A stretch of DNA of 64,000 bases from an uncultured Candidatus Saccharibacteria bacterium. Lineage in GTDB: Bacteria > Patescibacteriota > Saccharimonadia > Saccharimonadales > EFPC-124. Below are positions 6,083 through 63,943 of the stretch, piece after piece. The first letter of the stretch is position 1; every line of letters starts with the position of its first letter. Under the pieces are notes generated by a model that saw only the letters and a program-made list of their open reading frames with translations, did no database searches and was not told where the DNA came from. The position numbers and the translations under genes are program-made. The stretch is from the NCBI GenBank assembly GCA_965225085.1, contig CBDDBE010000002.1, positions 6,014 through 70,013 on the forward strand, given 5' to 3'.

Positions 6083-6122
6083 GTGGTATTGATTATAAGG
6101 CGTCTGCTACACTTTAGTTAGT

Positions 6123-6809
6123 ATGTACTTCCATTCACGGGCCGAAGCTGGCCAAAAACTCGCCGAACAACTCCAACAGTTTAGATTTGAAAACACAGCC
6201 GTTGTGGCCTTGAGCGATGGTGCGGTCATGGTTGCTGAACAGATAGCCATCTCGCTTCATAGCGTCCTGACGATGCTGCTCAGCGAGAGTGTCCAGGTGC
6301 CCGGCGAGCACACAACTCTCGGATCGGTCACACAAGATGGCGGATTTGTGTATAACAACGCACTGTCTGGTGGTGAAGTCGATGAATACTACAGCGAATT
6401 TCACGGTTATATTGAGGACCAGAAGCGGGAAAAGTCCTCGCACCTTAATCGGCTGCTAGGGCAGGGCGGATTGGTGGACGCAGGCACGCTTCGCGAGCAT
6501 GTCATTATCTTGGTTTCTGACGGACTCAAACATGGCACTTCGTTGGATGCTGCGGCAGAGTTTTTCAAACGAATTAAGATTGAGAAGCTAGTAATTACCA
6601 CGCCAATCGCGTCCGTCCAGGCTGTGGACCGTATGCATATTGTGGCTGACGAGTTACACTGTCTAAGCGTGACTGATAATTATATCAGTACGAATCACTA
6701 TTACGACGTCAATGACATACCATCGCATGAAGAGATTGTCGCCAAGATTAACAACGTTGTGCAAAATTGGCAGCAGTCCGGTAGCGAAAGCGGACTTGCC
6801 GCTTCATGA
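6123..6809 (+). CDS. Phosphoribosyltransferase-like protein
   Basis: N-terminus F.SRAEAGQKLAEQL...VVALSDGAVMVAEQIA and the later ILVSDGLKHGTS resemble a PRTase fold. Assignment made from motif memory only. Confidence 0.5.
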   Translation: MYFHSRAEAGQKLAEQLQQFRFENTAVVALSDGAVMVAEQIAISLHSVLTMLLSESVQVPGEHTTLGSVTQDGGFVYNNALSGGEVDEYYSEFHGYIEDQKREKSSHLNRLLGQGGLVDAGTLREHVIILVSDGLKHGTSLDAAAEFFKRIKIEKLVITTPIASVQAVDRMHIVADELHCLSVTDNYISTNHYYDVNDIPSHEEIVAKINNVVQNWQQSGSESGLAAS

Positions 6810-6865
6810 TGATGAATGTAGAATTATTAGCAACAGGATAAAAAGACAGGTACGTAAGGGCGAAG

Positions 6866-7150
6866 ATGTTAGACATATTTATCACTTCTAGGGTGCGACG
6901 CAAAATTGTGGTCGTATATGCCAAATATCCTGATTTTAAGACGCATGTTCGTGGCCTCGCTAAGCTTATCAAGGAAGATCCAGGCAATATTCAGCGCGAA
7001 TTGAAGCGTCTCGAGAAGGTTGGGTTTCTTCACTCCGAAAAGCAGGGCAACACCAAGATATATTCGACCAATAAGCATTTTGCGATATTCAAAGAGCTTC
7101 AAAGTATTGTTCTAAAATCCCAACAAGCGCAGCAAAAGGCCAAGCGGTAG
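6866..7150 (+). CDS. Small winged-helix (ArsR/MarR-like) DNA-binding protein
   Basis: 94 aa. LAKLIKEDPGNIQRELKRLEKVGFLHSEKQGNTKIYS looks like a helix-turn-helix plus wing. Confidence 0.6.
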   Translation: MLDIFITSRVRRKIVVVYAKYPDFKTHVRGLAKLIKEDPGNIQRELKRLEKVGFLHSEKQGNTKIYSTNKHFAIFKELQSIVLKSQQAQQKAKR

Positions 7151-7159
7151 CATCGGCTC

Positions 7160-8797: not shown

Positions 8798-8838
8798 GTG
8801 ATGAGGTGGCGGCGTCTTGCTGGACGCCGCCACCGGGC

Positions 8839-9392: not shown

Positions 9393-9421
9393 TTGCACAT
9401 CCGCCTCTGTTTTGGTACAAT
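9393..9421 (+). promoter_or_regulatory. Candidate sigma70-type promoter of rpsU (TTGCAC-N17-TACAAT)
   Basis: -35 at 9393-98 and -10 at 9416-21, with the ATG at 9432. No SD lies in between. Confidence 0.35.
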
Positions 9422-9431
9422 GACCTGCAGT

Positions 9432-9650
9432 ATGATCCAAGTAACTCGTAAAGACCCACAAGAAGCCAACGAAAACCTTATTCGTCGTTTTAACCGCAAA
9501 GTCCAGCAATCCGGCGTTGTCGCTCGGGTAAAGGCTCTTCAATATTTTGAAAAGCCTATCAGCAAGACAGAGCGACGCAAGAAAGCGATTATTCGTAAGG
9601 CTCGCAAAGCGGACAAGCTCAAGCGTATTCGCCTTGGTGTGGGGCGTTAA
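9432..9650 (+). CDS. rpsU: 30S ribosomal protein S21
   Basis: MIQVTRKDPQEANENLIRRFNRKVQQSGV...ERRKKAIIRKARK. The long upstream part of ORF 9267-9650 was rejected. Confidence 0.9.
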   Translation: MIQVTRKDPQEANENLIRRFNRKVQQSGVVARVKALQYFEKPISKTERRKKAIIRKARKADKLKRIRLGVGR

Positions 9651-11397: not shown

Positions 11398-11468
11398 CCT
11401 CCCTCAACTGACAGATTGAGCCCTCTGGGTGTTGCTCGATACCGACCGTAAGCGGTATACTTGTTCTT

Positions 11469-12731
11469 ATGCAGGAAATGTCTCGTTATGGCATCGGAAT
11501 CGATGTGGGTACGACCACGGTTCGTTGTGTGGTTGGTCATGTTGATGATAGCTCGATGACGCCGAATATTGTTGGGGTAGGCGAAGCGCCAAATACTGGG
11601 ATGCGCAAGGGTATCGTCGTTAATATTGTTAACGTTGCGCAGGCTATCGACAAGGCGTTGGAAGATGCCGAGCGAATGTCGGGCCACCAGGTTCACAACG
11701 CCTCCATCAATATTAATGGTGCGCATATTGCCGCCATGGCCTCGAGGGGCGTAGTTGCGGTAGGCGCCCAAAATCATGAAATTACCGAAGATGACCTGGC
11801 CAGAGCCGAAGAGGCTGCGACGGTCGTGCAACTGCCGGCAAATCGCGAGATTTTGCAGGTGACCCCGCGTAGTTACCAACTGGATGGGCAAGAGAATATC
11901 AAGGATCCACTCGGCATGAGTGGCATCCGGCTAGAGGTTGATACGCATGTCATCACGGCGCTGACCCCCCATGTGAAGAATTTGCTCAAAGCCATAGAGA
12001 TGACCGAAACCGCACCGCGCGTGGTGATGGTGTCCGGCTTGGCTTCGGCTCGAGCTGTGCTTACCCAGCAACAGATGGAAAACGGTGTTGCCGTTATCGA
12101 TCTTGGTGGTACAACGACCAGTATCGCCGTGTACGAGGAAGGCGACTTGCAGCATCTCTCTATTTTGCCCATTGGCAGCATGAATATCACCAATGATCTT
12201 GCGATTGGCCTTCGCACCGACCTGGATGTCGCCGAGGAAATAAAATTATCCCATGCGTCGGCTATTCCGCATAGCGGCAAAGACAAGCCGAAAGAGATCG
12301 AACTGACCCACAACGGCGAGAAGCTCACCTTTAAGGTGAAGGAAATCGATATGATTGTCGAGGCCAGGCTAGAGGAGATTATGGAGCTAGTCGACAAAGA
12401 GCTGAAGCAAATTGATCGATCCGGCAAATTGCCCGGCGGTATCGTGTTAGCTGGCGGTGGCGCCAACCTAAAGGGTATTGCTGATTTTGCGAAGGATGCG
12501 CTGCGGCTCCCGGTACGCATTGCCAAATTTGCAGAAATGAGTGGTGTCAGTGATAAGATCAGCCGACCTGAGTTTTCTGCCGCGCTAGGACTCATGATGC
12601 TCGACTTTGAAAAAGAACGCCAGGTGGTAGGCGGCGACCCAGCAAAGAAGAAGCCGGGTGCTTCGTCATCACAAGGCCTGGGTAATTTTGTTGAGCGGGC
12701 ACAATCGCTGTTCAAGAAGTTCAAAGCGTAG
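11469..12731 (+). CDS. ftsA: Cell division protein FtsA
   Basis: Actin-like GIDVGTTTVRCVVG, DLGGTTTSIAV and VLAGGGANLKGI. Adjacent to ftsZ. Confidence 0.9.
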   Translation: MQEMSRYGIGIDVGTTTVRCVVGHVDDSSMTPNIVGVGEAPNTGMRKGIVVNIVNVAQAIDKALEDAERMSGHQVHNASININGAHIAAMASRGVVAVGAQNHEITEDDLARAEEAATVVQLPANREILQVTPRSYQLDGQENIKDPLGMSGIRLEVDTHVITALTPHVKNLLKAIEMTETAPRVVMVSGLASARAVLTQQQMENGVAVIDLGGTTTSIAVYEEGDLQHLSILPIGSMNITNDLAIGLRTDLDVAEEIKLSHASAIPHSGKDKPKEIELTHNGEKLTFKVKEIDMIVEARLEEIMELVDKELKQIDRSGKLPGGIVLAGGGANLKGIADFAKDALRLPVRIAKFAEMSGVSDKISRPEFSAALGLMMLDFEKERQVVGGDPAKKKPGASSSQGLGNFVERAQSLFKKFKA

Positions 12732-12820
12732 GAAGCCCACTACTGATACCTTGCATAAGAGTTTGGCGCAGGCCAAAACTACGTGTATACTAATTGTGAA
12801 CAAGCAAGGAATATGAACGT

Positions 12821-14029
12821 ATGCCCGAAGTAAAACCAGCCGACATTCAGACATTTGCAACTATTAAGGTCGTTGGAGTTGGCGGCGCCGGTGGTGCTGC
12901 CATCAATCGCATGGTTGACGCGGGCGTTACTGGCGTTGAGTTTATTGCGGTTAACACTGACGCGCAGGCACTGCACAATTCCAAAGCACAACAAAAAATC
13001 CACATTGGCCGGGAAACTACTCGAGGCCTCGGTGCCGGCGCCGACCCATCTGTCGGGCAAAAGGCCGCCGAAGAATCTCGCGACGAAATTATGAAAGCGC
13101 TTCAGGGTGCCGACCTTGTCTTTATCACTATTGGCGCCGGTGGCGGCACGGGCAGCGGCGCTGGCCACGTCGTGGCTGAGGTTGCGAACGAGATGGGCAT
13201 ATTGGTTGTTGGCGTCGCGACCAAGCCGTTTAGCTTTGAAGGCGACAAGCGACGCAAGAATGCAGAGTGGGCCATTACCAAGCTTGGCCAATCTGTTGAC
13301 ACGCTTATCACCATCCCTAACGATCGGTTGCTTCAGACGATTGATCGCCGTACGCCACTCCTCGAAACGTTCAAGATCGCCGATGACGTCCTGCGTCAAG
13401 GCGTCCAAGGGATCTCTGAGCTCATTACCGAGCATGGGCTTATTAACCTCGATTTTGCTGACGTTAAAACGATTATGCAACACGCAGGCAGCGCACTGAT
13501 GGGTATCGGGCGGGCTAGCGGCGAGAATCGTGCCGTACAGGCAGCACAACAGGCTATTGAATCGCCGCTGCTCGAGGTGTCTATCGACGGCGCCAGGGGT
13601 GTGTTGTTCAATATAACCGGTGGTTACGACATGTCGATGCACGAAATCAACGAGGCTGCCGAGGTTATCACCAATGCGGTTGCTCCAGACGCCAACATTA
13701 TCTTTGGCGCAACGCTGAAGCCTGAGCTTGAGGACGAGCTAGTTATTACGGTTATTGCAACAGGGTTTGACTCGGCCTATTTCCAGGCACGCAATAGTGT
13801 CGAGCCTGACACCGTGGCGAACGTCCCGGCCGCCAACAACGCAACCGATGAAGTAAAAGAAGAAGACATCAAAACGTTCGACATGAACCTAGATGACGAA
13901 TCAAAGAAGCCCTCAGGCTTCACTGATGACGATGATCACCCCAAGAATATCTGGAATTACGACGACGAAGCTGACACACCTGCTTTTTTGCGCCGCCGCA
14001 AGAAGGAAGAAGAGCCCGAGACAGAGTAG
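12821..14029 (+). CDS. ftsZ: Cell division GTPase FtsZ
   Basis: [13 protein letters not shown] and the tubulin signature GGGTGSGA. Acidic C-terminal tail. Confidence 0.95.
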
Positions 14030-17990: not shown

Positions 17991-18078
17991 GCTGACTCCT
18001 TATCTCGATGCAGTCTGGATTGAAGCTGATTATACTGTTAGTTCTGTATCTGTCAACTGTACGGTATACTAGAGGGTA

Positions 18079-18342
18079 ATGAAAGCAATGCTCCTATACC
18101 GACCCAACTCCGAGCACGAGCGCATGGCGGAGGAATACGTTCGCGATTTTGCCAGGCATACGGGCAAGGAGCTGCCGACGGTTAATGTCGATACACCGGA
18201 CGGGTCCTACTTGGCGCAGGTATACGACATCGTGAAATTTCCGAGCATTGTCGCGACTGACGACGAAGGGAAGCTGCTGCAGTCGTGGAGCGATGATATG
18301 CTGCCACGGTTTGACGAAGTGAGCTTTTACGTCCAGGGTTAA
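18079..18342 (+). CDS. Small thioredoxin-fold-like protein without cysteines
   Basis: 87 aa with a KFPSIVATDDEGKLL pattern like Trx beta3-beta4. Contains no Cys. Fold call is tentative. Confidence 0.45.
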   Translation: MKAMLLYRPNSEHERMAEEYVRDFARHTGKELPTVNVDTPDGSYLAQVYDIVKFPSIVATDDEGKLLQSWSDDMLPRFDEVSFYVQG

Positions 18343-23639: not shown

Positions 23640-23700
23640 ACGCGGGCCCAAGCTCTGCTACAATAGACCTGACACAACGAGAGAGGGAAACAATAACATT

Positions 23701-24462
23701 ATGGCTGCAATTATTGCCGTCACAAATCAAAAAGGTGGGGTAGGGAAGACGACGACGTCTGTAAATTTGGCGTACTATCTGTCCAAGCTGGGCCGCACGG
23801 TGCTGTTGGTCGACTTCGATCCGCAAGGGAACGCCACGAGTGGTCTGGGCATCGACAAGTACGGCGTTGACTTGACGGTTATCGACCTAGTGCAGGAAAA
23901 GGCCAAGCTAGAGGACTGCGCAGTCGAGACAAAACACAAGAAACTATTTTGCGTGGTTGCAACGCCGCAGCTTGCAAACGCCGAGGCCGAGCTTGCCAAG
24001 GAGCAACATCGGTTTACGCGTCTGAAGAATGCGCTTGCTGACGCACCATACGATTATGTGCTGATAGACTGTCCGCCGTCGTTGAGCCTGCTGACGGTGA
24101 ATGGCCTGATCGCCGCGCATTATGTTTTGTTGCCCGTGCAGGCGGAATTCTATGCACTGGAGGGGCTCGGGCAATTGCTCGAAACCATGCAGTTGGTGCG
24201 TAAGGGCCTGAACCCGACACTCGAGCTCCTAGGGGTAGTCCTGACGATGGTAGATAGCCGTACGACGCTGTCTGGCCAGGTCCATGAAGAGGTCAAGAAG
24301 CATTTTCCTGGAAAAGTCTTTACCACAGTTATCCCGCGCAATGTGCGCCTGGCCGAAGCGCCAAGCCATGGGTTGCCAGTCGGCGCGTATGATCGGTGGT
24401 CAAAGGGCGCTCGTGCGTATAAGGTACTCGCAAAGGAGGTATCGCAGCGTGTCGAAAAATAA
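23701..24462 (+). CDS. parA: Chromosome partitioning ATPase ParA/Soj
   Basis: Deviant Walker A NQKGGVGKTTT. Start trimmed to MAAIIAVTNQ. Confidence 0.9.
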   Translation: MAAIIAVTNQKGGVGKTTTSVNLAYYLSKLGRTVLLVDFDPQGNATSGLGIDKYGVDLTVIDLVQEKAKLEDCAVETKHKKLFCVVATPQLANAEAELAKEQHRFTRLKNALADAPYDYVLIDCPPSLSLLTVNGLIAAHYVLLPVQAEFYALEGLGQLLETMQLVRKGLNPTLELLGVVLTMVDSRTTLSGQVHEEVKKHFPGKVFTTVIPRNVRLAEAPSHGLPVGAYDRWSKGARAYKVLAKEVSQRVEK

Positions 24463-25950: not shown

Positions 25951-25952
25951 GT

Positions 25953-26696
25953 CTAGAAAAATCCGGTTCGGTTCAGTGGGAAAATGCGCGCCAGCAATCG
26001 CCCTTCGATCTTGCTAGTGTCGATTGGGCCAAATGATCGAGAATCGAATGACCCACCTGGACCTCTGTTGTCACCCATCACAAAGACTTCATTGCTGGGG
26101 ATAACGAGGTCGATCGGCGTATCAACATAGGCGGGCGCTAAGTGCAAACCGAGCGCGTCGTTAGCGTTAAATCCGTTTGGATTGTCTTTGTTTTTTATCA
26201 TAACGGCGCCGTCGCTTCCGATGATGATGTGTTCGCCCGGCAGGCCAATGACGCGCTTGATCAGCTGCTCATTATGGCCCGACTGATCGATGAGCGAGCT
26301 ATCCAGGACGACAATCTGGCCACGGGTCGGGACGTAGGCGCGGCTTTGGGCGCGTGCGACGCTGCGTTCGACTTTATCGATGATGAGTCGGTCGTTGTTT
26401 TGGAGGGTAGGGGTCATGCTGGTGCCATCGACGTAGTAGGACTGAAAGACGAATTGGTTGATAAGTGTAGCCGCGACGATAACGCCAGCGACAAACAGAA
26501 TAATGGACGAAAATGCCCATATCCCACTACGACGAGAGTCGGATGTAATTGGGGCAATTGGAGACTGTTGATCAGAACCGACAGGCGATTCTGGCAATGG
26601 CTTTGACGCTGGCGGCGCAGCTGGTGGTGTTGGAGTGTCTGACCCTTCCATAGCTAGTATCATAGCATGCTTTCTGGTGGGGTTCATGAATTGCAC
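25953..26696 (-). CDS. lepB: Signal peptidase I (copy 1); start codon ambiguous (GTG 26696 or ATG 26687)
   Basis: GTSMTPTL, IKRVIGLPGE and GDNRGPGGSFDSR. Confidence 0.85.
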   Translation of the reverse strand: MQFMNPTRKHAMILAMEGSDTPTPPAAPPASKPLPESPVGSDQQSPIAPITSDSRRSGIWAFSSIILFVAGVIVAATLINQFVFQSYYVDGTSMTPTLQNNDRLIIDKVERSVARAQSRAYVPTRGQIVVLDSSLIDQSGHNEQLIKRVIGLPGEHIIIGSDGAVMIKNKDNPNGFNANDALGLHLAPAYVDTPIDLVIPSNEVFVMGDNRGPGGSFDSRSFGPIDTSKIEGRLLARIFPLNRTGFF

Positions 26697-28546: not shown

Positions 28547-28605
28547 ACCCGAGGGGTAATATACGGCTAGCACCCATGGGCGGCATTGAGTATAATAAGT
28601 AGTAT

Positions 28606-29370
28606 ATGGAGCTGCTCAAAACAGGCATTCGTCGCACGAAAGTAGGCGAACTAGCCTACATTGCTATCAACGCCGTGCTACCGGTGGTTCTGCTGCTACT
28701 GGTGCTGAGCTTTAACTCGGCTTATCCGGCATTGGCATTGGTTTTGCTCAGTAAATGGCGTGTTTTTGCGCTGCGGCCGCGGTTTTGGTGGGCTAACATC
28801 AAGGCCAATCTAGTTGATTTTTTGGTTGGGGTTAGCTATATCGGGTTGCTCTTTTTTTCTAATAGCTCATTGCCCGTCATGATCGCCTTGGCGGCAGGGT
28901 ACGGTGTATGGCTGCTATATCTCAAGCCTCGATCAGACCACGCGTCTATTATGCTGCAGGCTGGAGTTGCCCAGTTTGTCGCGCTGGTGGTGCTATTTAG
29001 CCTCTCGGTTGTTACGAATGAGCTCCTCGTTATCCTCGGATGTTTTTGCATAGGGTACATTGCCGCACGCCACGTGCTGATCAACTTCGAGGAAGACCTA
29101 GCCGAGTTTATGAGCTACGCGTGGGGCTTAGCAATTTCTCAGATTGGATGGATACTATTCAGGTGGACCATAACATATGATTTGCAACTACCGTTTAGGA
29201 TCCCGCAGGTAGCGCTTGTCGTGTTAGTAATGTCGATGGCTGCCGGTCGATTGTATGCAGCGGCAAAAGGCCATCGGCTAACAAAGGCGCTCGTGCGCTC
29301 GACGATGATATTCAGCGCGGTGTTGATCTCTTTTATCCTTATCTTTGCGCGGTGGGACGTAACGGTTTAG
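28606..29370 (+). CDS. Polytopic membrane protein, unknown function
   Basis: 254 aa with about 7 hydrophobic segments. No motif recognised. Confidence 0.55.
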   Translation: MELLKTGIRRTKVGELAYIAINAVLPVVLLLLVLSFNSAYPALALVLLSKWRVFALRPRFWWANIKANLVDFLVGVSYIGLLFFSNSSLPVMIALAAGYGVWLLYLKPRSDHASIMLQAGVAQFVALVVLFSLSVVTNELLVILGCFCIGYIAARHVLINFEEDLAEFMSYAWGLAISQIGWILFRWTITYDLQLPFRIPQVALVVLVMSMAAGRLYAAAKGHRLTKALVRSTMIFSAVLISFILIFARWDVTV

Positions 29371-33501: not shown

Positions 33502-33828
33502 TTATTCTTCGCTTGTGTCGGCTTTTTTGGCTGCTTTGGAAGGGGTAGCAGCTTTCTTGGTGAGCGCAGCGCGGCGAGTCTTTGCAGCTTCGGCTCGAGC
33601 TTTAAAGCGGTCAACGCGACCTTCGGTGTCGAGAAGTTTTTCTTTGCCTGTGTAGAAAGGATGAGAGGCGCTGCTAATATGCATTTGGACAACTGGGTAC
33701 TCGTTGCCATCTTCCCATTTGATTTTTTGGTCAGTTTTGACGGTCGAATTTGTGAGGAACGCAAAATCAGCGGCAGCGTCCTGGAAGACGACAGGTCGAT
33801 AATCGGTTGGATGTAGATCTTTTTTCAT
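33502..33828 (-). CDS. rpmE: 50S ribosomal protein L31 (non-zinc type B-like, with a K/A-rich tail)
   Basis: [17 protein letters not shown]...HPFYTGK. Upstream extension of ORF 33502-34149 rejected. Confidence 0.9.
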
Positions 33829-38225: not shown

Positions 38226-38250
38226 CCAATCGGCGGTATAATACTATCTC

Positions 38251-43206: not shown

Positions 43207-43334
43207 CAGAACTCCAGGTTGTCGGGTACGCGGCACAAGGCTGTGCCGACTTATACTATATTAACACATAATTAATATAAAGTCAATAATGCTACTAGTT
43301 TAGGACGCGCGAATAGGGTATACTATATCAGATT

Positions 43335-44864
43335 ATGCAGTGGCTTAACGACATCGTAGAGTTGGCTATGCGCCAGCATCCCGAAGGCGAGATTATCGTT
43401 AGTTCTGGCGTGTCGCCCTCAGGAAAGTATCACCTGGGGACGCTTCGGGAGATTTTAACCGCCGAAGTGATTATGCGTGAACTGCAGCGCCGTGGTCGCA
43501 TCGCGCGGCATATCCATGTTGTTGATGACCTCGATCCATTTCGGAAGGTGCCGGCTGGGCTACCTGATGACTATGCGCAGTATCTGGGGTCGCCGCTGTG
43601 CGATGTGCCTGCGCCCGATGGCAGCAATCGTAGCTACGCCGATTATTTCCTGGACGATATGCTCGGTGCGGCCAAGAAGTTACGTCTGAGTATGGAAGTG
43701 GTGCGTTCACACCAAAATTATCGTGATGGGTTTTATGTACCGGCTATCGAACAGGCTTTGGCGCACATCGACGATATCAGGCGAATTTTGAGCGAGGTAT
43801 CGGGCCGGGCGCTGGACGATCAGTGGTCGCCCATTCAGGTTGTAGAGGATGGCAAGTTAAAAAATCGTCAGTTCAAGTCGATCGATACGCAGGCAAAGAC
43901 GCTCGTGTACGCCGATGCCGACGGCAATGATCGCGAAGCGAGCTATGCGCACGGTGACGTCAAGCTGAACTGGCGTATTGACTGGCCGGCGCGGTGGCAG
44001 GCGCTCGGCGTAAATGTTGAGCCATTTGGCCGGGACCATGCCACTAAAGGCGGCAGCTACGATACGGGCATGCTATTGGTACGGCAGATTTTTGATGCTG
44101 AGCCACCCATTCCCGTCCCGTATGATTTTATAAATCGCACTGGCGAGACCAAAAAGATGAGCAAAAGCGCCGGAAACACCATTACGGCAGCGGAGTTGCT
44201 GGACATGCTACCGCCAGAAATCGTGTGGTATTTCATCTTGCGCGCCGCGCCGAGCAAGCTGCTATTCTTCGACGAGGGCGATATATTTATGCGACTTGTC
44301 GATAGCTTTGCGGAGCTACTGGCTCGGCCCGACAAAACTGATTCTGAACGCCAACTGATCGAACTTTGCACTCAGGATGTTGAGCCGACGGTCAGCAACA
44401 TTCCATTTACGCATTTGGTTGCCAGTTATCAGGCGTCACTCAAGGACGCCGACCAGACCGTAGAGGTAATTAAGCGGACAGAGCATGCCGCAACAGCCGA
44501 GCGGGATGCGGTCATCATTACGCGGGAGCTCAAGTTTATCGACAATTGGCTGGTCAGCCGAGCGCCAGAGGATGTGAAGTTTGAGCTAGCCGCAGATGTG
44601 AGACCGGATGATTTTAGCGCAGACCAACGACATTTTCTGCAGCGATTGGGCGAGAAGGCAGCCACCGCCCCCGAGGATGCCGACGGCCAGTGGTTTCACA
44701 ATGCTATGTACGAGCTGAAGGACGAGCTAGGGCTCGCGCCAAAGGATATGTTTAGCACTCTGTACCAAGCATTGATCGGCAGGACCAGCGGTCCGCGTGC
44801 CGGATGGTTTCTGAGTATCTTGCCTCGCGATTGGCTAATTGCACGCCTGCAACTTACAAAGTAA
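43335..44864 (+). CDS. lysK: Lysyl-tRNA synthetase, class I
   Basis: Class I architecture: SPSGKYHLGTLRE (HIGH-type) and KMSKS. About 509 aa. Confidence 0.9.
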   Translation: MQWLNDIVELAMRQHPEGEIIVSSGVSPSGKYHLGTLREILTAEVIMRELQRRGRIARHIHVVDDLDPFRKVPAGLPDDYAQYLGSPLCDVPAPDGSNRSYADYFLDDMLGAAKKLRLSMEVVRSHQNYRDGFYVPAIEQALAHIDDIRRILSEVSGRALDDQWSPIQVVEDGKLKNRQFKSIDTQAKTLVYADADGNDREASYAHGDVKLNWRIDWPARWQALGVNVEPFGRDHATKGGSYDTGMLLVRQIFDAEPPIPVPYDFINRTGETKKMSKSAGNTITAAELLDMLPPEIVWYFILRAAPSKLLFFDEGDIFMRLVDSFAELLARPDKTDSERQLIELCTQDVEPTVSNIPFTHLVASYQASLKDADQTVEVIKRTEHAATAERDAVIITRELKFIDNWLVSRAPEDVKFELAADVRPDDFSADQRHFLQRLGEKAATAPEDADGQWFHNAMYELKDELGLAPKDMFSTLYQALIGRTSGPRAGWFLSILPRDWLIARLQLTK

Positions 44865-44925
44865 TTTAAAGCTCGGCTACTCTCAAACCTTTTTAACAGA
44901 TGGCATACGCTGTATACTATAAAGC

Positions 44926-46221
44926 ATGTTAGATATCAAATTCATCCGGGAGAACGCCGATCGTGTTCAGCAGGCCAGCGAGCAAAAGGGCTACAAAGTC
45001 GATGTTGCTCATCTGCTAAGCCGCGATCAAGAGCGGCGCGAGCTACTCGGCAAAGTCGAGGCACTGCGCAAAGAGCGCAACGAACTATCTGGCAGCATGC
45101 AGAACCAGAAACCAAATGACGATCAGCTGAAGCGCGGCCGCGAGATCAAGACTGAAATTGCCGAACTAGAGGACCGCCTGCGGGTGGTCGAGGAAGAGTG
45201 CCTCAGCCTTCTCAAAAAAATCCCGAACGTGCCGCTGGATTACGTGCCGATTGGCTCCAGCGAAGACCAAAACGTCGTTGCCAAAACAGTTGGCGAGCCT
45301 CCAAAATTTGACTTTGAACCCAAGAACCATTGGGAAATAGCCGTTGCACGTGACTGGATCGACAAGGAGCGGGCGGCCAAAGTCGCCGGCGCGCGCTTTG
45401 CCTATGTAAAGGGCGAACTGGCTCGTTTGCACTTTGCGCTGATGAGCTTTGGGATGGACGTACTGAGCGACGAGAAGGTGATTGCTGGCATTATTCAGGA
45501 CGCAGGCCTAAGCCTCTCGACCAGGCCATTTACGCTAGTCATGCCACCAGCTGTTGCTCGCACCGACGTTTACGACGCCACCGGCCGCCTCAACAAAGAG
45601 GAGCAAACGTACAAGCTGGCCGACGATGATTTGTGGCTGAACGCCAGCGCCGAACACGTGATGGCCCCAATGTACATGGGCGAGATCTTGGACGAAGCGC
45701 AGCTACCAATTCGCTTGGTTGGCTACACGACGGCCTTCCGACGTGAAGCCGGCACCTATGGTAAGGACATGGAGGGCATTCTCAGGATGCACCAGTTCGA
45801 CAAGCTCGAAATGGAAAGCTTCACGACTGCCGAGACTGGCCTGGAAGAACACAAGCTGATGGTTGCCGTTCAAGAATATTTGATGAGCCAGTTGGGGATT
45901 CCGTACCGGGTAATGCAGAAGTGCACTGCTGACATTGGAGGCCCAAATGCTGCCGGCATCGACATTGACGCGTGGCTGCCTGGCCAGCAGAAATACCGCG
46001 AAACGCATACGGCCGATTACATCACCGACTACCAAGCCAGGCGGATGCAGACTCGCGTACGCCGAGCGAATGGTGAGATTGAACTGGTGCACACCAATGA
46101 CGCAACAGCATTTTCGCAGCGTCCGCTGGTCGCGATCATCGAGAATTACCAGCAAGCCGACGGAACAATCGTTGTGCCTGACGTATTGCGCCCATATCTC
46201 GGGGGCCGAGAAGTACTGTAG
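44926..46221 (+). CDS. serS: Seryl-tRNA synthetase
   Basis: N-terminal coiled-coil MLDIKFIREN. FRREAGTYGKD and the class II motif 3 region. Confidence 0.95.
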   Translation: MLDIKFIRENADRVQQASEQKGYKVDVAHLLSRDQERRELLGKVEALRKERNELSGSMQNQKPNDDQLKRGREIKTEIAELEDRLRVVEEECLSLLKKIPNVPLDYVPIGSSEDQNVVAKTVGEPPKFDFEPKNHWEIAVARDWIDKERAAKVAGARFAYVKGELARLHFALMSFGMDVLSDEKVIAGIIQDAGLSLSTRPFTLVMPPAVARTDVYDATGRLNKEEQTYKLADDDLWLNASAEHVMAPMYMGEILDEAQLPIRLVGYTTAFRREAGTYGKDMEGILRMHQFDKLEMESFTTAETGLEEHKLMVAVQEYLMSQLGIPYRVMQKCTADIGGPNAAGIDIDAWLPGQQKYRETHTADYITDYQARRMQTRVRRANGEIELVHTNDATAFSQRPLVAIIENYQQADGTIVVPDVLRPYLGGREVL

Positions 46222-50411: not shown

Positions 50412-50565
50412 GGTTCCTCCAGGGAAGCTTGGGAGCGAATGCATTTACTATATCATAAAAATATAGTTTATGCAATATACAAAAATATGAAACGTGGCAG
50501 TTATATGTTCCGCCAGGGAGTGATATGATAGTTGGAAGAAGATTAACCTGGATACTTTTTGCCCT

Positions 50566-53159: not shown

Positions 53160-53781
53160 TCTGGGCATTTATGGCCCGAATTGGATTCAGTACGGTAACG
53201 GACTGACCAACAGCTTGCGAAATGGCATTCTCTAGGTATAAGTAGTGCGTGCAGGCCAGCGAAATAACGTCGATGCCGTCGTGCGCGAGCCGTTCGGCCA
53301 GGCCCACAGCTTCGCTTTCGTCGAAATCATGCGTTTCAATCTGGCCAGCCCAGGTAGAGCAGTCCGGTTCGGCAACGTGCAGATCGCCAGCCCATGTGCG
53401 CTTAAGCAATTTGTACCGACGGCTTCGTAGGGTGGCAGGCGTGGCCAGAACGGCAATTCGGCCATTTGTTGTCAGTGCGGCGGCAGTTTTGACCATTGGT
53501 TCAAAGCCAATAAATGGTAGATGCGGGTGCTTATCGCGCAGACTGCGTATGGCGACGGTCGTTGCGGTGTTGCACGCAATCACCACGACGTCGCAAGCAG
53601 AAACGAGCGGTAGGACCGCATCATGAGTAAGCCGCGTGATATCATCATCTGACCGCGACCCATACGGCGCGTTTAGGAGGTCATCGACAATCATAAATGT
53701 GTCCTGAGGGCGGAGTAAACGCAGCTGTTCTGCGACATAGCGCCCGCCAAAGCCTGTGTCGAATATGCCGATATGTGCCAT
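53122..53781 (-). CDS. murI: Glutamate racemase
   Basis: IGIFDTGFGG, VIACNTAT and LACTHY. Start trimmed to MAHIGIF. The 3' end overlaps the murD 3' end by 38 nt. Confidence 0.85.
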   Translation of the reverse strand: MAHIGIFDTGFGGRYVAEQLRLLRPQDTFMIVDDLLNAPYGSRSDDDITRLTHDAVLPLVSACDVVVIACNTATTVAIRSLRDKHPHLPFIGFEPMVKTAAALTTNGRIAVLATPATLRSRRYKLLKRTWAGDLHVAEPDCSTWAGQIETHDFDESEAVGLAERLAHDGIDVISLACTHYLYLENAISQAVGQSVTVLNPIRAINAQITHVLAGASSRR

Positions 53782-53835
53782 GACTACAATTATAGCGAAT
53801 AAGTTTGCGAGCGGCGCAATGGTATAGTAGTAGCA

Positions 53836-54921
53836 ATGGAAAAGATATTGCAACGTATAAAAGCGCTTAGTGCGCAATTGGACCAGGCTTGGCAAAAGCT
53901 TCGCGGCGACGATTTGGATCACGAGCGAGCAGCTTTGCAGGCGCAGATGGCCGCGCCGGATTTTTGGAATGACAATCAGCAGGCGCAAGTGGTTGCGAAG
54001 CAAGAGGCAAAGCTGCAGGCATTACTGACCCCGTGGATCGATATGCGTCGCGAGCTGGACGACCTGCGTGAACTTGCCGCGGATGGCGATAGCTCGCTGG
54101 AGGCAGAGCTGGGCGCACAGTTATCGAAAGTGGAGCAAGAATTTGAAGTGCGCAAGCGCGATCTGCTGTTCTCGGGCAAATATGATGACCACGATGCGAT
54201 TCTGCGGCTGAGCGCTGGTGCTGGAGGCACCGACGCGCAGGATTGGGCCAGCATGCTGCTGCGCATGTACACGCGTTGGGCGGAGCAAGCGGGTATGAAA
54301 GCTGAACTGCTGGAGCAGTCGACCGGGGAAGAGGCCGGAATCAAGAGCGCCGTACTGAGCGTAAGTGGCCCGTATGCCTATGGCAAGCTTCGCGGTGAAC
54401 ACGGTGTACATCGTTTGGTCCGATTGAGCCCATTCAACGCTGACAATTTACGCCAAACGTCATTTGCCCTGGTAGAGGTGCTGCCGCAAATCGATGCACC
54501 TGATGAGGTACAAATTGACGATAAGGATCTGAGGATCGACGTGTTTCGCGCAGGCGGTCACGGTGGGCAGTCGGTCAACACGACGGATTCTGCTGTTCGT
54601 ATTACGCACCTGCCGACCAATATAACCGTCAGCATCCAGAACGAACGTAGCCAGCTACAAAACAAAGAAACGGCTATGAAGGTGCTGCGTTCCAAGTTAG
54701 CGCAGCTGGCAGTCGAACAGCACCAAGAGCGCATCGACAAGCTGAAAGGCCCAACCAAATCGGCAGAATGGGGCGCCCAAATTCGCAACTATGTCCTGCA
54801 TCCGTACACGATGGTGAAAGATGCCCGTACTCGTCACGAGGAGCGTGACGCGCAGGCTGTGCTAGATGGCCGATTGGACGGATTCATTGGGGCGTATTTG
54901 GAGGCAGTGATTGCCGCATAG
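53836..54921 (+). CDS. prfB: Peptide chain release factor 2, encoded in one continuous frame
   Basis: SPF tripeptide (RLSPFNA) and GGQ ([11 protein letters not shown]). No in-frame TGA or frameshift site near codon 25. Confidence 0.95.
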   Translation: MEKILQRIKALSAQLDQAWQKLRGDDLDHERAALQAQMAAPDFWNDNQQAQVVAKQEAKLQALLTPWIDMRRELDDLRELAADGDSSLEAELGAQLSKVEQEFEVRKRDLLFSGKYDDHDAILRLSAGAGGTDAQDWASMLLRMYTRWAEQAGMKAELLEQSTGEEAGIKSAVLSVSGPYAYGKLRGEHGVHRLVRLSPFNADNLRQTSFALVEVLPQIDAPDEVQIDDKDLRIDVFRAGGHGGQSVNTTDSAVRITHLPTNITVSIQNERSQLQNKETAMKVLRSKLAQLAVEQHQERIDKLKGPTKSAEWGAQIRNYVLHPYTMVKDARTRHEERDAQAVLDGRLDGFIGAYLEAVIAA

Positions 54922-55272: not shown

Positions 55273-55452
55273 CGATTTGCCGCTCCAAACGGTACTCATG
55301 AGCTCTGTAGCTGGCAAAGGCCTAACGACTACAGTGATTGCCAAAGTCGGACGATACTATTTTACGATTATATTTGTTATAAGTCAATATTCTGGTGTTG
55401 TATCGCTATCGATCGTTGGGGTAATGCGCGTACCATATGCTACAATTGAAAG

Positions 55453-56139
55453 GTGATTTTACTCGACCGCGTGACAAAAATTTACGGAAAAGACAACAAG
55501 CCCGCACTCAATAGAGTTAGTCTACACGTCGAACCCGAAGAGTTCGTGATTTTGGTAGGGACGTCAGGGGCTGGCAAGTCGACATTGCTCAAGATCCTCA
55601 CGCGCGAGGAGCGACCAACTAGTGGCAAAATCGTCGTGGGCGGCATCGATTATGACACGCTAAAGGACCGCCACATTCCATTACTACGACGCAAGATTGG
55701 CGTGGTGTTTCAGGATTTCAAGCTTTTGCCACAACGCACCGTGTTCGAGAATATTGCCTTTGCGCTGGAGATTGTGGGGATGAGTAATCGCGAGATTCGC
55801 CACACGGTGCCAAAAGTGATCGAGCTCGTGGGTCTAACTGGCAAGGAAGACAAATTTCCCAGCGAGCTTTCTGGTGGTGAACAGCAACGCGTGGCGATTG
55901 CGCGTGCAGTTGTGCGCCAGCCCAAGATTCTGATCGCCGACGAGCCAACTGGCAACCTCGACCCCAAACACAGCTGGGATATCGTGCGCTTGCTGGAGAA
56001 GATCAATCGCTACGGAACGACCGTCCTACTTACCACGCACAACCAAGATATCGTGAACAAATTAAAACGCCGGGTGATTACCATCGACCACGGCAAGCTT
56101 ATTGCAGATGTCGCGCAAGGAAGTTATCAACAGGGATAG
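55453..56139 (+). CDS. ftsE: Cell division ABC ATPase FtsE
   Basis: [23 protein letters not shown] and [12 protein letters not shown]. Confidence 0.95.
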
Positions 56140-58243: not shown

Positions 58244-58285
58244 TTGACGAGCTTCATTGATGCGCTTGTAGTATCATAGAACCAC

Positions 58286-58798
58286 ATGGAGAAAATATTT
58301 CCTGGTTTCGGTGCATTGTCACGGAAAATGCAGCGCAGAGTCGGCGGTACGCTTGTAATAGTAGTCGTTGGGCTATCGTTGCTTATTGCGGTCGTAGCCG
58401 TCGTAGGTGCTGGCCCAGCCTGCGGTGGCGGATACCCGGATCGATTTTGCAAGAAGTCACTAGATACGATAGTCGACAACTGGGGCATGTACAATCGCGA
58501 GTGCGTTAGCTACACCGCATACCGCGTTGCTGTATCGGGCAGAAAAATGCCATTTGGATTTGGTGACGCCAACCAATGGCCAACTGCGGCACGTGCGCAC
58601 GGTATTCCTGTCGATGCAATACCTCGAGCTGGCGACGTCGCGATACGGCCCGGCGGCAGCCACGGGCATTCGATGTACGTCGAGTCAGTCAACAGCAACG
58701 GCACGATCAACGTTAGCGAGTACAATACGAATAAGCTGGGCACGTACAGCGAAGAAACAATTGGCACTGAGGGTCTGCAATTTATTCACTTCTTCTAA
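58286..58798 (+). CDS. Membrane-anchored CHAP-domain hydrolase; paralog of the CHAP domain upstream
   Basis: N-terminal TM, then GPACGGGYPDRFC...NRECVSYTAYRV...GHSMYVESV. Long near-identical nucleotide stretches shared with 57860-58240. Confidence 0.75.
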   Translation: MEKIFPGFGALSRKMQRRVGGTLVIVVVGLSLLIAVVAVVGAGPACGGGYPDRFCKKSLDTIVDNWGMYNRECVSYTAYRVAVSGRKMPFGFGDANQWPTAARAHGIPVDAIPRAGDVAIRPGGSHGHSMYVESVNSNGTINVSEYNTNKLGTYSEETIGTEGLQFIHFF

Positions 58799-60135: not shown

Positions 60136-60155
60136 GTCGAGTACACTAACATTGT

Positions 60156-60536
60156 ATGGATGCCAAAAAGAAAATTCTTCTTGTCGAAGATGATACTGCC
60201 CTCGCAAGCGTCTATGTGTCGCGCTTGCAGCTAGAGGGTTTTGACGTAAAACATGTAAGCAACGGCGAGGATGCGCTGAGCACAGCCGTTGCTTACAGGC
60301 CAGATTTGATCGTTCTTGATGCGATGATGCCCAAGATTAGCGGCTTTGATGTTTTGGATATTTTGCGCAACACCGCCCAGACGGCTAACGTGCGCATTAT
60401 GATGCTAACTGCGCTGAGTCAGGCGAAGGACCGTGAGCGTGCCCAGCAGCTCGGCGTGGACGACTATTTGGTCAAGTCGCAAGTCGTAATCGGTGATGTC
60501 GTTGCTCGTATAAAGCACCATTTAGGCGTTAAGTAG
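60156..60536 (+). CDS. Stand-alone response-regulator receiver domain (CheY-like)
   Basis: KILLVEDD, DLIVLDAMMPKISG and the LTA...K pattern. No output domain and no adjacent kinase. Confidence 0.85.
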   Translation: MDAKKKILLVEDDTALASVYVSRLQLEGFDVKHVSNGEDALSTAVAYRPDLIVLDAMMPKISGFDVLDILRNTAQTANVRIMMLTALSQAKDRERAQQLGVDDYLVKSQVVIGDVVARIKHHLGVK

Positions 60537-60913: not shown

Positions 60914-62089
60914 TTAGTGTGACTCCTTGGCTGTTAAAACCAGTAATTCGCGGGCAACAATTTGATCCTCGCGGTGATATATGAGGTCTTGCGCGCGTAT
61001 GTGTTTAAAACTTACTCGATTATAGCCGATTTTCTCGAGGTCGTCAATAACATCCAGATGACGATAGCCTTGGCCGGTAAACCAAGCTGGCACGGCGACA
61101 CAAAGGCGTGTGCCTGGGGCTATCTGAGGGCGGAGGTTTTGCAAAAAAGCCTTGGCAATATCGTTGCATTCGCTGGCTATGCGGGCCAGATGTACTGGGG
61201 CGGGTAGGGTATGCAACGGTTTGCCCAAGTACCCCTCACACACGACGCTATCGATTGGCTGTTGCCACGTGGCGGTCGTGGCATCGAGGGTATCCAGCGA
61301 GAGGGCAAAATCAATGCCGTATGTATCCTTCAGCCACTGGATGTTCTGGCCAGTGTAATCGACCATTCGTCCACTTATGTCTGTTCCGTATACGTCGCAG
61401 CCCATCAGCGCGGCTTCTTGTAGCACGACGCCGGTGCCACAAAACGGGTCGAGCACGCGCTGGCCGGGTCGGACTTGTGCCAGGTTGAGCATGGTCTGCG
61501 CAAGTTTGGGCGGTAGCATTCCCACGAACGCATCGCGGCGGGGGCGAGTAAAGTCACGTCGGGCGTAATCGTCGATGTCTTGGACGTGCACGGTGCGGGC
61601 GATGTGCGTACGCGCGCCATCGCGGATGAAGAGAAGCTCGCACCCGAGGTCGCTCGTGAGCTGGTTGTGCAGGATCTGAGCGCTGTTAAGTTCGAGTGCA
61701 CTGTTGGGTACAACGCGAGCAGATCGTCCATTAGCACGAAGAGCCTTCTTGAGTTCAAGTCCGCTACGTTGGAGCGATTTGAGACTGACGTTTAGACCGT
61801 AGGTGCTGAGGCCAAGCTTTATTTTGCCCTCGGTCGGCATGTCGGCAAAGTGACGGGGTAGAAGCGTCCGGCAGGCGTCCAGAATCTGCGACCAATCGGT
61901 CCTGTCCAAGGTTGCTAACGGGGTGCCTATCTTGATGACGCTGCCCAGCAAGTGGGCCGGGACATCCTGAACCTCGACGTCAACCTGCGCGGCAATGTCG
62001 CCCAGTGGCAGGATGCGTTCAGCGCCAAAACGGCTTTCGAGCTCGGCCAGGCCGAATGCAGGCTGGCGGCCTAAAATACAGATAATCAT
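60914..62089 (-). CDS. SAM-dependent methyltransferase (RNA/UPF0020-like; target unknown)
   Basis: Motif I VLDPFCGTGVVLQEAALMG..VYGTDIS. Start trimmed to MIICILGRQP. Confidence 0.65.
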   Translation of the reverse strand: MIICILGRQPAFGLAELESRFGAERILPLGDIAAQVDVEVQDVPAHLLGSVIKIGTPLATLDRTDWSQILDACRTLLPRHFADMPTEGKIKLGLSTYGLNVSLKSLQRSGLELKKALRANGRSARVVPNSALELNSAQILHNQLTSDLGCELLFIRDGARTHIARTVHVQDIDDYARRDFTRPRRDAFVGMLPPKLAQTMLNLAQVRPGQRVLDPFCGTGVVLQEAALMGCDVYGTDISGRMVDYTGQNIQWLKDTYGIDFALSLDTLDATTATWQQPIDSVVCEGYLGKPLHTLPAPVHLARIASECNDIAKAFLQNLRPQIAPGTRLCVAVPAWFTGQGYRHLDVIDDLEKIGYNRVSFKHIRAQDLIYHREDQIVARELLVLTAKESH

Positions 62090-62163
62090 ATAATCTTCAG
62101 TATAGCGTTTTTGTGGCTCTCCCGCCATGCGCCTGGGGGTGGGGCGGGCGGGAGAGCCACTGT

Positions 62164-62802
62164 TCATGTTTCCATGCCAGGGATGCTTGGTTCCTTGACG
62201 TGCTTCGCTTGGGCGATTTCGTATATCGTTTGGCCTGCCGCGTTGGGCTCGACGCGGATGAGAGTATTCCTTGTCGGAGCCCAGCCGGGATCATCGGCTA
62301 GCGTGACATACCAGCCAAGGTTGCCGGTCTCCATCATCCATTCCGCGGTTGCGAGCCCAACGCCTTTTCCGATCCGGTTGAACAAGGTCACGAGCTTGTA
62401 GCACGGCCTCCGCGGGTTTTCAATCTCCAGCCTCAGGCGGCTGGGCCCCCAGTACCACACATCGCTTGTACGCGCGATTTGCTCATTGGCATAGGCGCCA
62501 CTCACGAGCAAGTTCTCGCCGAATGTCAGGCCGAGCTCGGCAAGCCGGTCCGGGGCGGTTCCGAAGGCTTCAGCCCACCGAATGTACTGGGTGATGGGCA
62601 GGACATAAACGGCCTTCTTGGGGCCGCCATGTACCCTGAGGTCCGCTTGCGCGTCACCTCGTAGACCTGCCTGGGTAACCCAAATGCGGCTGTCTGACAC
62701 GGGTCGCTTCAGGAAGCAGCTCATTATTTCTGCGCCACTATTCCTGTGACCGATGACCTCAGGCGCGCCGAGAACGCGTGTATCAAGGAGTGAAATGTCC
62801 AT
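62164..62802 (-). CDS. MOSC-domain protein (YiiM-like)
   Basis: GDAQADLRVHGGPKKAVYV and the conserved-Cys segment NPRRPCYKL. A spot count on line 62401 gives 41/60 G+C. SD is AGAGGAAA. Confidence 0.8.
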   Translation of the reverse strand: MDISLLDTRVLGAPEVIGHRNSGAEIMSCFLKRPVSDSRIWVTQAGLRGDAQADLRVHGGPKKAVYVLPITQYIRWAEAFGTAPDRLAELGLTFGENLLVSGAYANEQIARTSDVWYWGPSRLRLEIENPRRPCYKLVTLFNRIGKGVGLATAEWMMETGNLGWYVTLADDPGWAPTRNTLIRVEPNAAGQTIYEIAQAKHVKEPSIPGMET

Positions 62803-62911
62803 GATTTCCTCTCGTCTGGGATGAACAAAAAGGAGTATGCATCATCGTGGCGGTTTTTGCAAACAATTGCAGCGTTGCGGTCGGCCGAGCAAATAGTCTA
62901 AGATAAAGCGT

Positions 62912-63943
62912 ATGAGATTTAAATTCTGGCTCAATATTGTGACCTTTGCCGCCATTGCTGTTGTGGTTGTGTTTGCTCGTCACGACATTATTATGGCGTT
63001 CCAGAAGATGCAACATCTGAACATTTGGGTGCTGGCACTGATGGTGCCGGCGCAGTTTTTTGCGTTTTATGCGGTCGCACGGGTGTATTTTCATTTCTTT
63101 AAGGCCACGGGGACGCCGCTTTCTATGAAGGTGTTGCTACCGGCTGCGATTGAGCTGAACTTCGTGAATCATATCTTCCCAAGCGGTGGCGTCTCGGGTT
63201 TTTCGTACCTGACTATTCGCCTGCGGCACGAAGACATCTCGACGGCCAAGGCGACGCTGGCTCAGCTGGTGCGATTTATGATGGTGTTTGTAACGTTTAT
63301 TGGCTTACTGTTGTTAGCGGTGATTTTGTTAGCCCTACAGGACCAAGTGAATCGGTTTATTATCCTGATGGCAACAGCGTTGACCGTGAGTATTCTGTTT
63401 GCGACGCTAACTGTGCTGTACGTTATTGGGACAGAGTATCGTATACGCGATTTTACGCGTGGTATGAGCCGGCTTCTGAATCGCTTGATCCATATTGTCA
63501 GGCCGGGCCATCCGGAGACCATTGACCTGGGGCAGGTGGAGAAGACATTTACCGAGCTCCACAACGATTATGTGCTCCTGCGGCGCGATCTTCGTAAAAT
63601 GTGGCCGGCGATTACGTGGGCGCTTATCGCAAATGTTGCAGAGATCGGTTTGATATATATTGCCTTCGTGGCACATGGTGCATGGATAAACCCCGGCGCA
63701 CTCATTATCGCGTACGCGATCGCAACGGTGGCTGGGCTTCTTGCAATCCTGCCTGGCGGACTAGGCGTGTATGAGCCGCTAATGGCCGCCGTGCTACTAA
63801 GTGCTGGCGTCTCGGGCACGGTTGCACTGAGCGCTACGCTGGTTTCGCGTGTGGTGATGCTGGGGCTAGCCCTTGGTACGGGATATGTGCTCTATCAACG
63901 AGCGCTGAGGCGGTATGGAGACGTTGACGTTACGCGTCAGTGA
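62912..63943 (+). CDS. Flippase-like / lysylphosphatidylglycerol-synthase-TM-region family membrane protein (UPF0104-like)
   Basis: 343 aa with about 8 TMs and the central basic loop typical of this family. Assignment made from topology memory. Confidence 0.6.
   Translation: MRFKFWLNIVTFAAIAVVVVFARHDIIMAFQKMQHLNIWVLALMVPAQFFAFYAVARVYFHFFKATGTPLSMKVLLPAAIELNFVNHIFPSGGVSGFSYLTIRLRHEDISTAKATLAQLVRFMMVFVTFIGLLLLAVILLALQDQVNRFIILMATALTVSILFATLTVLYVIGTEYRIRDFTRGMSRLLNRLIHIVRPGHPETIDLGQVEKTFTELHNDYVLLRRDLRKMWPAITWALIANVAEIGLIYIAFVAHGAWINPGALIIAYAIATVAGLLAILPGGLGVYEPLMAAVLLSAGVSGTVALSATLVSRVVMLGLALGTGYVLYQRALRRYGDVDVTRQ

Follow-up and report, generated by a model that had tools for sequence, protein, structure and literature searches.

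In Escherichia coli and Gram-positive bacteria, the TG of an extended -10 element (TGnTATAAT) offsets a weak or absent -35 element, and transcription starts about 7 nt downstream. Elements of this kind lie just upstream of the start codons of many genes in the window analyzed here, a stretch of 64 kb with a GC content of ~54% from one genome of Candidatus Saccharibacteria (Patescibacteria/candidate phyla radiation, CPR). Unlike the extended -10 elements of E. coli and Gram-positive bacteria, they appear to be placed so that transcription would begin at the start codon, which would give leaderless or near-leaderless mRNAs. In the GeneMarkS-2 classification, as its main text describes, the first genes of operons in group C genomes (Actinobacteria, Deinococcus-Thermus) have a Pribnow box at 6-8 nt from their start codons, and roughly 25-50% of the operons are leaderless (PMC6028130). 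The window resembles group C, as presented there, in having Pribnow boxes near gene starts together with Shine-Dalgarno (SD) sites at leadered and internal genes (PMC6028130). It differs from the group C examples in its lineage, a tiny genome, a moderate GC content, and many promoters that lie within co-directional spacers of 20-70 nt. Saccharibacteria are not named in the main text of the GeneMarkS-2 paper, whose supplementary tables might list one (PMC6028130).

Mycobacterium tuberculosis offers a second comparison. Its -10 element is TANNNT with no -35 consensus, and about a quarter of its genes are leaderless (PMC3898074). As predicted for the window, tRNA synthetase genes are often leaderless in M. 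tuberculosis, whereas genes for elongation factors and for the majority of ribosomal proteins have leaders (PMC3898074); unlike M. tuberculosis, the window has two ribosomal protein genes, rpsU and rpmE, with very short predicted leaders. The M. tuberculosis case was built on mapped transcription start sites (TSSs) (PMC3898074), whereas the Saccharibacteria case is known from sequence alone. In the literature searched, leaderless genes, SD usage, and mapped TSSs are not reported for Saccharibacteria, Patescibacteria, or CPR, and a preprint on the TM7x transcriptome mentions neither promoters nor 5' untranslated regions (UTRs).

The hexamers next to start codons in the window are very probably genuine sigma-70-type -10 elements placed for leaderless or near-leaderless transcripts. 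An earlier note on this DNA had proposed as much for 14 genes. The hexamers, gap lengths, and start codons of all 14 (the gap being the number of nt between the end of the hexamer and the start codon) are exactly where the note placed them and on the strands it gave (Table 1), and every prediction of the proposal that could be tested at the sequence level was borne out, which supports it. What is directly observed is the motif with its position, enrichment, conservation, and promoter signature, together with its mutual exclusion with SD sites and the accompanying ATG bias.

Enrichment of the promoter-proximal hexamer pattern, TANNNT, was assessed with both uncurated and curated starts. The uncurated set comprises 62 open reading frames (ORFs) of the window that pass a six-frame codon test, each with its longest-ORF start; 16 of them carry TANNNT at a gap of 6-10, compared with 5.1% of all ATGs in the window (binomial p = 6.6e-8), and the gap histogram peaks at 7 and 8. 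Among 63 curated starts the number rises to 21, whereas shuffling their upstream regions 5000 times gave 5.75 +/- 2.24 and never more than 15, and each adjacent 5-nt gap window holds only 2-11 starts. The strict hexamers TATAAT, TATACT, TACAAT, TACACT, and TATAGT occur 99 times on the two strands, and 14 of the 99 copies lie 6-10 nt before a start codon versus 0.24 expected.

The same spacing recurs in related genomes. The best matches of the window's seryl-tRNA synthetase (SerRS) are found solely in metagenome-assembled genomes (MAGs) of Candidatus Saccharibacteria/Saccharimonadales, with a top identity of 82%. A first set of relatives consists of 80 Saccharibacteria loci around serS (57-82% SerRS identity; 1204 long ORFs), processed without reference to the motif; orthologs were assigned by tblastn, and the start codon nearest to the aligned N-terminus was taken. 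A second set, the close relatives, consists of 13 metagenome contigs that cover a separate neighborhood, with FtsA identities of 82-87%. Among the 1204 ORFs, TANNNT occurs 132, 89, 68, and 52 times at gaps 6, 7, 8, and 9, over a background of ~33, and SD 4-mers peak at gaps 5-9. An unbiased search for enriched 5-mers upstream of these starts returned only two families, the SD family (AGGAG/GGAGG/AAGGA), which provides the most enriched words, and the -10 family (TATAA/ATAAT/GTATA/ATACT). The pattern is present in two separate neighborhoods (80 and 13 related genomes), the genome of the window itself being represented by 64 kb only. The peak at 6-8 nt would correspond to the known distance from the -10 element to the TSS. 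Across bacteria, the TSS lies ~7 bp past the -10 element (PMC12641261), and leaderless TSSs of M. tuberculosis have TANNNT 7-12 bp before them (PMC3898074).

It is scarcely credible that the class arose by chance or through annotation, that is, from a TANNNT common in the AT-richer intergenic DNA and from starts chosen to fit it. The pattern does occupy about 1% of positions, and the hexamers of recJ (TAGCAT), an M16 gene (TACTTT), and the LPG-synthase gene (TAAGAT) are weak and may be coincidental. Yet the enrichment holds with uncurated starts, against shuffles, and against neighboring gap windows, and it reappears in 80 related genomes through a motif-blind pipeline with negative-control genes built in. 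In addition, the starts are fixed by Pfam N-terminal alignments, which back those of serS, lysK, def, murI, and rpsU. For the class as a whole, chance is effectively refuted, with single weak cases remaining. The recJ candidate was dropped, since its hexamer overlaps the stop codon of an upstream gene that ends 9 nt before the recJ ATG, and recJ is therefore probably coupled to that gene.

Twelve of the 14 listed starts are the first start codon past an in-frame stop. For the two internal exceptions, murI (53781) and rpsU (9432), the beginnings of the Pfam domains point to the same start codons, and the murI start also appears in an independent gene call of 219 aa on Logan contigs of 2.5-5 kb that encode window proteins. 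Runs SRR9179560 and SRR9179562 contain contigs that are identical to parts of the window. Longest-ORF starts are wrong at murI, rpsU, def, parA, and rpmE.

The sequence around the hexamers has the anatomy of a promoter. A logo was built from 173 conserved cases anchored on the hexamer, which had been selected by T1, A2, and T6 only. Its consensus, T.TG.TATAATA, corresponds to an extended -10 element as found in sigma-70-type promoters; 126 of the 173 (73%) have G at -14 and 96 (55%) have T at -15, both positions lying outside the selection. Because this signature was not selected for, the hexamers are best regarded as sites for RNA polymerase rather than generic AT-rich sequence. In M. tuberculosis, by comparison, TGn accompanies only 7% of the TANNNT promoters (PMC3898074). 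A hand count of the window hexamers gave G at -14 in 11 of 19 and TGn in 5 of 19, versus 31.5% and 8% across every TANNNT occurrence in the window. The -35 region of the 173-sequence logo carries no information. A scan for classical -35/-10 hexamer pairs recovers 2 of the 14 listed promoters (rpsU and uppS) plus that of rpmE, an outcome that fits promoters that would be largely independent of a -35 element. A recognizable -35 element is present in a few cases, namely ftsA, rpsU, rpmE, and the promoter of a 92-aa ORF (18056-18029), and in the close relatives ftsA and rpsU keep a conserved TTGC-type -35. The bases at the start also vary with the gap. A pyrimidine directly precedes the ATG in 87% of the cases with gap 6, as in a Y-1/R+1 start-site context, and an A does so in 47% of those with gap 7; these preferences fit a TSS that would be fixed at the seventh base past the hexamer. 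A pyrimidine at -1 was rejected as a signature of the class overall, since its frequency is the same in the different classes (63-67%) and differs only by gap length.

Elements of the same type precede SD-leadered genes at greater distances: TGcTATAAT 62 nt upstream of hpf, TGcTATACT 115 nt upstream of greA, and the boxes of ftsZ (29 nt) and parA (36 nt). This range of 29-115 nt bears on whether the motif could instead be an A/T-rich non-SD ribosome-binding signal, or a signal for an unstructured leader, within a longer 5' UTR, of the Bacteroidetes type (GeneMarkS-2 group B). As in group B, an AT-rich signal lies near the starts of SD-less genes, at the position of a ribosome-binding site (RBS), and rplU, CHAP1, and lytR appear to carry A-rich leaders without SD. 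The group B motif, however, precedes all genes, operon-internal ones included, and lies inside the mRNA, whereas the Saccharibacteria motif excludes SD genes and, unlike a general RBS, is missing from SD-led, coupled, and operon-internal genes. Moreover, an invariant T-A-n-n-n-T with a TGn extension is a signature of sigma recognition, and canonical SD sites are strongly used at other genes. A ribosome-binding signal is thus a highly improbable account of the hexamers.

The 65 curated genes of the window fall into distinct classes: 20 are promoter-proximal, 32 carry an SD-like site, and the other 13, most of them overlapping or stop-start coupled, show neither signal. An SD-like 4-mer is present in only 1 of the 20 promoter-proximal genes versus 32 of the 45 others (Fisher p = 4e-7). 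SD sites are indeed found at nrdJ, rpsB, frr, greA, and the GC-rich ORFs, as the earlier note had stated; tsf and rpsB retain theirs, and ftsZ, nrdJ, map, and nrdR retain SD leaders in the 13 close-relative contigs. Start codons differ as well. Promoter-proximal orthologs use ATG 189 times, GTG 3 times, and TTG not at all (n = 192), compared with 83% ATG in the other classes (p = 1.6e-9), and the promoter-proximal genes of the window have 19 ATG and 1 GTG. This ATG share of 98% contrasts with mycobacterial leaderless starts, among which GTG is common (PMC3898074).

Promoter-proximal status is a conserved property of particular genes. At serS, 67 of 79 orthologs have TANNNT at a gap of 5-10, the usual form being TATAAT or TACAAT with a gap of 6-7, whereas the same pipeline finds greA promoter-proximal in 0 of 31 (27 with SD). 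Together with greA, three further groups serve as internal negative controls: hpf, promoter-proximal in 5 of 75 (61 with SD); a class II aminoacyl-tRNA synthetase (aaRS), in 2 of 23 (16 with SD); and M16, in 2 of 70. At ftsE, 46 of 57 orthologs are promoter-proximal, nearly all with ATG. In relatives in which serS, ftsE, or frr is not promoter-proximal, usually the same -10 box lies further upstream and is followed by a short SD leader (L012, L016, L025, L030, L054, L060, L063); the SD-leadered ftsE relatives have TACAAT or TATAAT further upstream, with a GTG start in three (L012, L016, L060). This suggests that serS, ftsE, and frr would have toggled frequently between leaderless and SD-led designs in evolution. 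In five loci (L046, L047, L044, L054, L034), promoter-proximal starts make up only 0-11% of long ORFs versus 20-50% in other relatives, and the trait may be reduced in some Saccharibacteria sublineages.

Among the close relatives, the gap is fixed or nearly so (7 at ftsA, 9 at the PRTase gene, 8-11 at others), and at ftsA, def, and rpsU its bases vary freely. For ftsA, TATACT with a 7-nt gap is found in 13 of 13, with variable gap sequence and a -35-like GTTGC upstream. For rpsU, 8 of 8 have TTGCAC or TTGCGC, a 17-nt spacer, and TGnTAGAAT or TGnTAAAAT at gap 10-11. TATACT is kept at gap 8-10 upstream of def in 4 of 4 relatives, again with variable gap sequence. The 87-aa gene has TACAGT or TACGCT at gap 7-10 in 3 of 3 close relatives, and 3 of 4 murI orthologs are promoter-proximal, no start codon having been found for the fourth. 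The rpmE start is set by the L31 Pfam match, and 7 relatives carry cTTTACt...TGaTATAAT at gap 11. No counterparts of the receiver, membrane, and LPG-synthase genes occur in the relatives' loci examined.

From the promoter geometry and the mycobacterial and Deinococcus precedents, the following scheme can be drawn. RNA polymerase holoenzyme would recognize the -10 box, in many cases an extended TGnTAYAMT and in most with little or no -35, and transcription would start ~7 nt past it: on the A of ATG at gaps 6-8, and 1-5 nt before ATG at gaps 9-12. Since the resulting mRNAs would have neither a 5' UTR nor an SD site, they would be read by the leaderless route, in which the ribosome and initiator tRNA bind the 5'-terminal AUG directly. 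About 20 of the 65 window genes would be built this way, including genes for aaRSs, release factor 2, cell division, and replication. About half of the genes (such as rpsB, tsf, frr, greA, hpf, nrdJ, and ftsZ) would have SD leaders behind the same kind of -10 element further upstream. The divergent pairs fit closely into this geometry. Only 40 nt separate the start codons of priA and the PRTase gene, and 54 nt those of murI and prfB, with the -10 boxes back to back; therefore, there is no space for 5' UTRs.

Several points weigh against this interpretation or narrow it. The genes with gaps of 9-10 (priA, PRTase, membrane gene, lysK, rpsU) are predicted to have leaders of 2-4 nt and so would not be strictly leaderless; for rpmE, with a gap of 12, the predicted leader is likewise short, up to ~6 nt. 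SD-like purine runs occur in the gaps of the 87-aa gene and def. The earlier statement that none of the 14 genes has an SD site in the gap holds for 13 of them and fails for the 87-aa gene, with GAGGG 2-3 nt from its ATG. The ftsE start is GTG, which is disfavored in leaderless translation of the E. coli type. The motif of uppS is missing in 5 of 5 distant orthologs, 4 of which are coupled to the frr stop codon. Ortholog counts such as those for serS and ftsE come from relatives that share phylogeny and hence are not independent events. The 3' region of 16S rRNA is absent from the window and from all of the relatives' loci searched, and the anti-SD sequence is deduced solely from the enrichment of GGAGG/AGGAG. 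Finally, the only TSS set found for Saccharibacteria, that of N. lyticus, was deduced from RNA-seq coverage and is described as imprecise, as cited in PMC12641261.

A further point is that serS, uppS, the receiver gene, and ftsA each have a co-directional gene 20-70 nt ahead with no terminator between, and read-through transcripts may also exist at these four genes. In a broader form of this argument, the internal promoters are real, but much of the mRNA at serS, uppS, the receiver gene, ftsA, the membrane gene, and CHAP2 is polycistronic read-through; the start codon there would be internal, reached by SD-less re-initiation or 70S scanning, and leaderless mRNA would be only part of the total. 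Scans of these co-directional spacers (20-71 nt) found no terminator-like hairpin, stop-start coupling joins uppS to frr in relatives, and the 13 genes with neither motif show that overlap and coupling are in use. Nevertheless, mixed transcription of this kind is unlikely as the explanation of the class. At least 8 promoter-proximal genes (priA, PRTase, murI, prfB, lysK, Trx-like, LPG-synthase, and rpsU) head divergent units, so that no upstream transcript is possible, and read-through alone leaves the conserved -10-to-ATG spacing and the exclusivity of ATG unexplained.

Most of the gene names given earlier are confirmed by Pfam: serS, class I lysK, uppS, priA, the PRTase gene, the receiver domain, the ABC ATPase of ftsE, S21 (rpsU), FtsA, the PCRF/RF-1 domains of RF-2 type (prfB), and the Asp/Glu racemase (murI). 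The membrane gene clearly encodes a multi-pass hydrophobic protein. The gene called flippase-like matches LPG_synthase_TM, and the name Trx-like is unverified, since the protein matches no Pfam family at E<=0.1 and lacks a CxxC motif. The prfB gene (53836-54921; PCRF and RF-1 domains, RF2-type) is one unbroken ORF.

Table 1. Promoter-proximal genes, additional candidates, and SD-led comparators in the window. All coordinates are window positions.
Gene	Coordinates	Strand	Element	Gap (nt)	Start	Remarks
ftsA	11456..11471	+	TATACT	7	ATG	FtsA by Pfam
serS	44913..44928	+	TATACT	7	ATG	Seryl_tRNA_N aligned from residue 1
prfB	53823..53838	+	TGgTATAGT	7	ATG	Promoter-proximal in 35/51 orthologs
murI	53779..53794	-	TATAAT	7	ATG	Asp_Glu_race profile extrapolates to ATG
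LPG_synthase_TM ("flippase-like") gene	62899..62914	+	TAAGAT	7	ATG	Weakest hexamer of the 14; window only
uppS	38237..38253	+	TATAAT	8	ATG	Within 25-nt frr-uppS spacer
87-aa "Trx-like" gene (name unverified)	18065..18081	+	TATACT	8	ATG	
Response-regulator receiver gene	60142..60158	+	TACACT	8	ATG	20 nt past ctpA stop; window only
priA	6080..6097	-	TATAAT	9	ATG	4/4 close relatives TTATAAT/TTACAAT at gap 9-10
PRTase gene	6108..6125	+	TGcTACACT	9	ATG	4/4 close relatives TACACT/TAAACT at gap 9
Multi-pass membrane protein gene	28591..28608	+	TATAAT	9	ATG	No Pfam match; window only
ftsE	55441..55455	+	TGcTACAAT	6	GTG	ABC ATPase by Pfam
lysK (class I LysRS)	43319..43337	+	TATACT	10	ATG	9/11 orthologs promoter-proximal, gap 6-10
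rpsU	9416..9434	+	TGgTACAAT	10	ATG	Near-leaderless; predicted leader 3-4 nt
def (additional case)	4098..4116	-	TATACT	10	ATG	Pep_deformylase profile sets N-terminus there
Signal peptidase I paralog (additional candidate)	26649..26664	-	TGcTATGAT	7	ATG	Start putative
164-aa hypothetical (additional candidate, ambiguous)	50442..50457	-	TATGAT	7	ATG	Alternative SD-led ATG 50411
CHAP-domain protein 2 (additional candidate)	58272..58288	+	TATCAT	8	ATG	
rpmE	33826..33846	-	TTTACA, 17-nt spacer, TACAAT	12	ATG	No SD; predicted leader ~5 nt
ftsZ (comparator)	12786..12823	+	TATACT	29	ATG	AAGGA SD in leader; kept in ~10 relatives
parA (comparator)	23656..23703	+	TGcTACAAT		ATG	36-nt leader with GAGGGA; ATG 23701; downstream of rplU terminator

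Other features of the window were noted in passing. Back to back with the predicted leaderless promoter of the Trx-like gene, the minus strand carries a perfect consensus promoter (18056-18029; TTGACA-16-TATAAT), followed by a 38-nt leader, an AAGGAG SD site, and GTG 17990. It opens the 92-aa ORF mentioned above (17712-17990, minus strand), which has no Pfam match and no relatives in the loci examined and which ends at a bidirectional terminator (17651-17683) common to nrdJ. Two tandem pairs of paralogs are present, one of signal peptidase I (25354-26696, minus strand) and one of CHAP-domain cell-wall hydrolases (57092-58798, plus strand). For the first CHAP gene the probable start is TTG 57092, which follows an SD-less A-rich leader that is conserved in relatives; ATG 57134 had been considered as a near-leaderless start and was dropped, as the homology of the leader with relatives points to the TTG.

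Between recJ and rpsU, an apparent gap (8839-9282, minus strand) holds a conserved gene of ~147 aa with a Zn-ribbon-like CxxC...CxxC and a GAGGAG SD site; 5 of the 13 close relatives have it as well, and a plus-strand ORF at 8806-9249 was rejected as spurious. A gene for a SMODS-associated NUDIX protein (Sa_NUDIX; 36949-37551, minus strand) adjoins an unannotated 201-aa ORF (36262-36867, minus strand), and the two could be a defense-related pair. The first 1700 nt of the window (1-1700) have a GC content of 58% versus ~54% and contain ORFs 12-680 and 693-1532, which have strong GGAGG SD sites, no Pfam match, and no homolog in the relatives' loci examined; this segment may be acquired DNA. Scans with Rfam and for tRNAs detected no rRNA, tRNA, or Rfam family in the window.

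It is well supported that this is a known architecture, that of Actinobacteria and Deinococcus, which would be new for Saccharibacteria, and that it would involve no new mechanism. A more far-reaching idea is rather doubtful as a whole: that Saccharibacteria as a class, and possibly other CPR, have an ancient second regime of translation in the form of gene-specific leaderless initiation, in which a housekeeping set (aaRS, RF2, FtsA/FtsE, PriA) would have stayed leaderless over deep divergence and the translation apparatus would be SD-led, the split serving as a switch with growth state or host attachment or reflecting signals shared with leaderless-rich actinobacterial hosts. Of this idea, conservation and the partition of genes are the observed part.

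For genome annotation, gene-start calling in MAGs of CPR and Saccharibacteria depends on recognizing that about a third of genes would be without an RBS, and the -10-to-ATG rule, combined with domain alignments, corrects wrong starts such as those of murI, rpsU, def, parA, and rpmE. The toggling at serS, ftsE, and frr points to a simple change, in which a gene would switch between leaderless and SD-led designs by the gain or loss of a leader of ~10-20 nt between an unchanged -10 element and the start codon. A TGnTATAAT followed by 6-7 nt and ATG would be a minimal expression cassette to try in genetic systems for Saccharibacteria. Together, these findings would add a lineage of symbionts with ultrasmall genomes to the groups known for abundant leaderless translation, Actinobacteria and Deinococcus.

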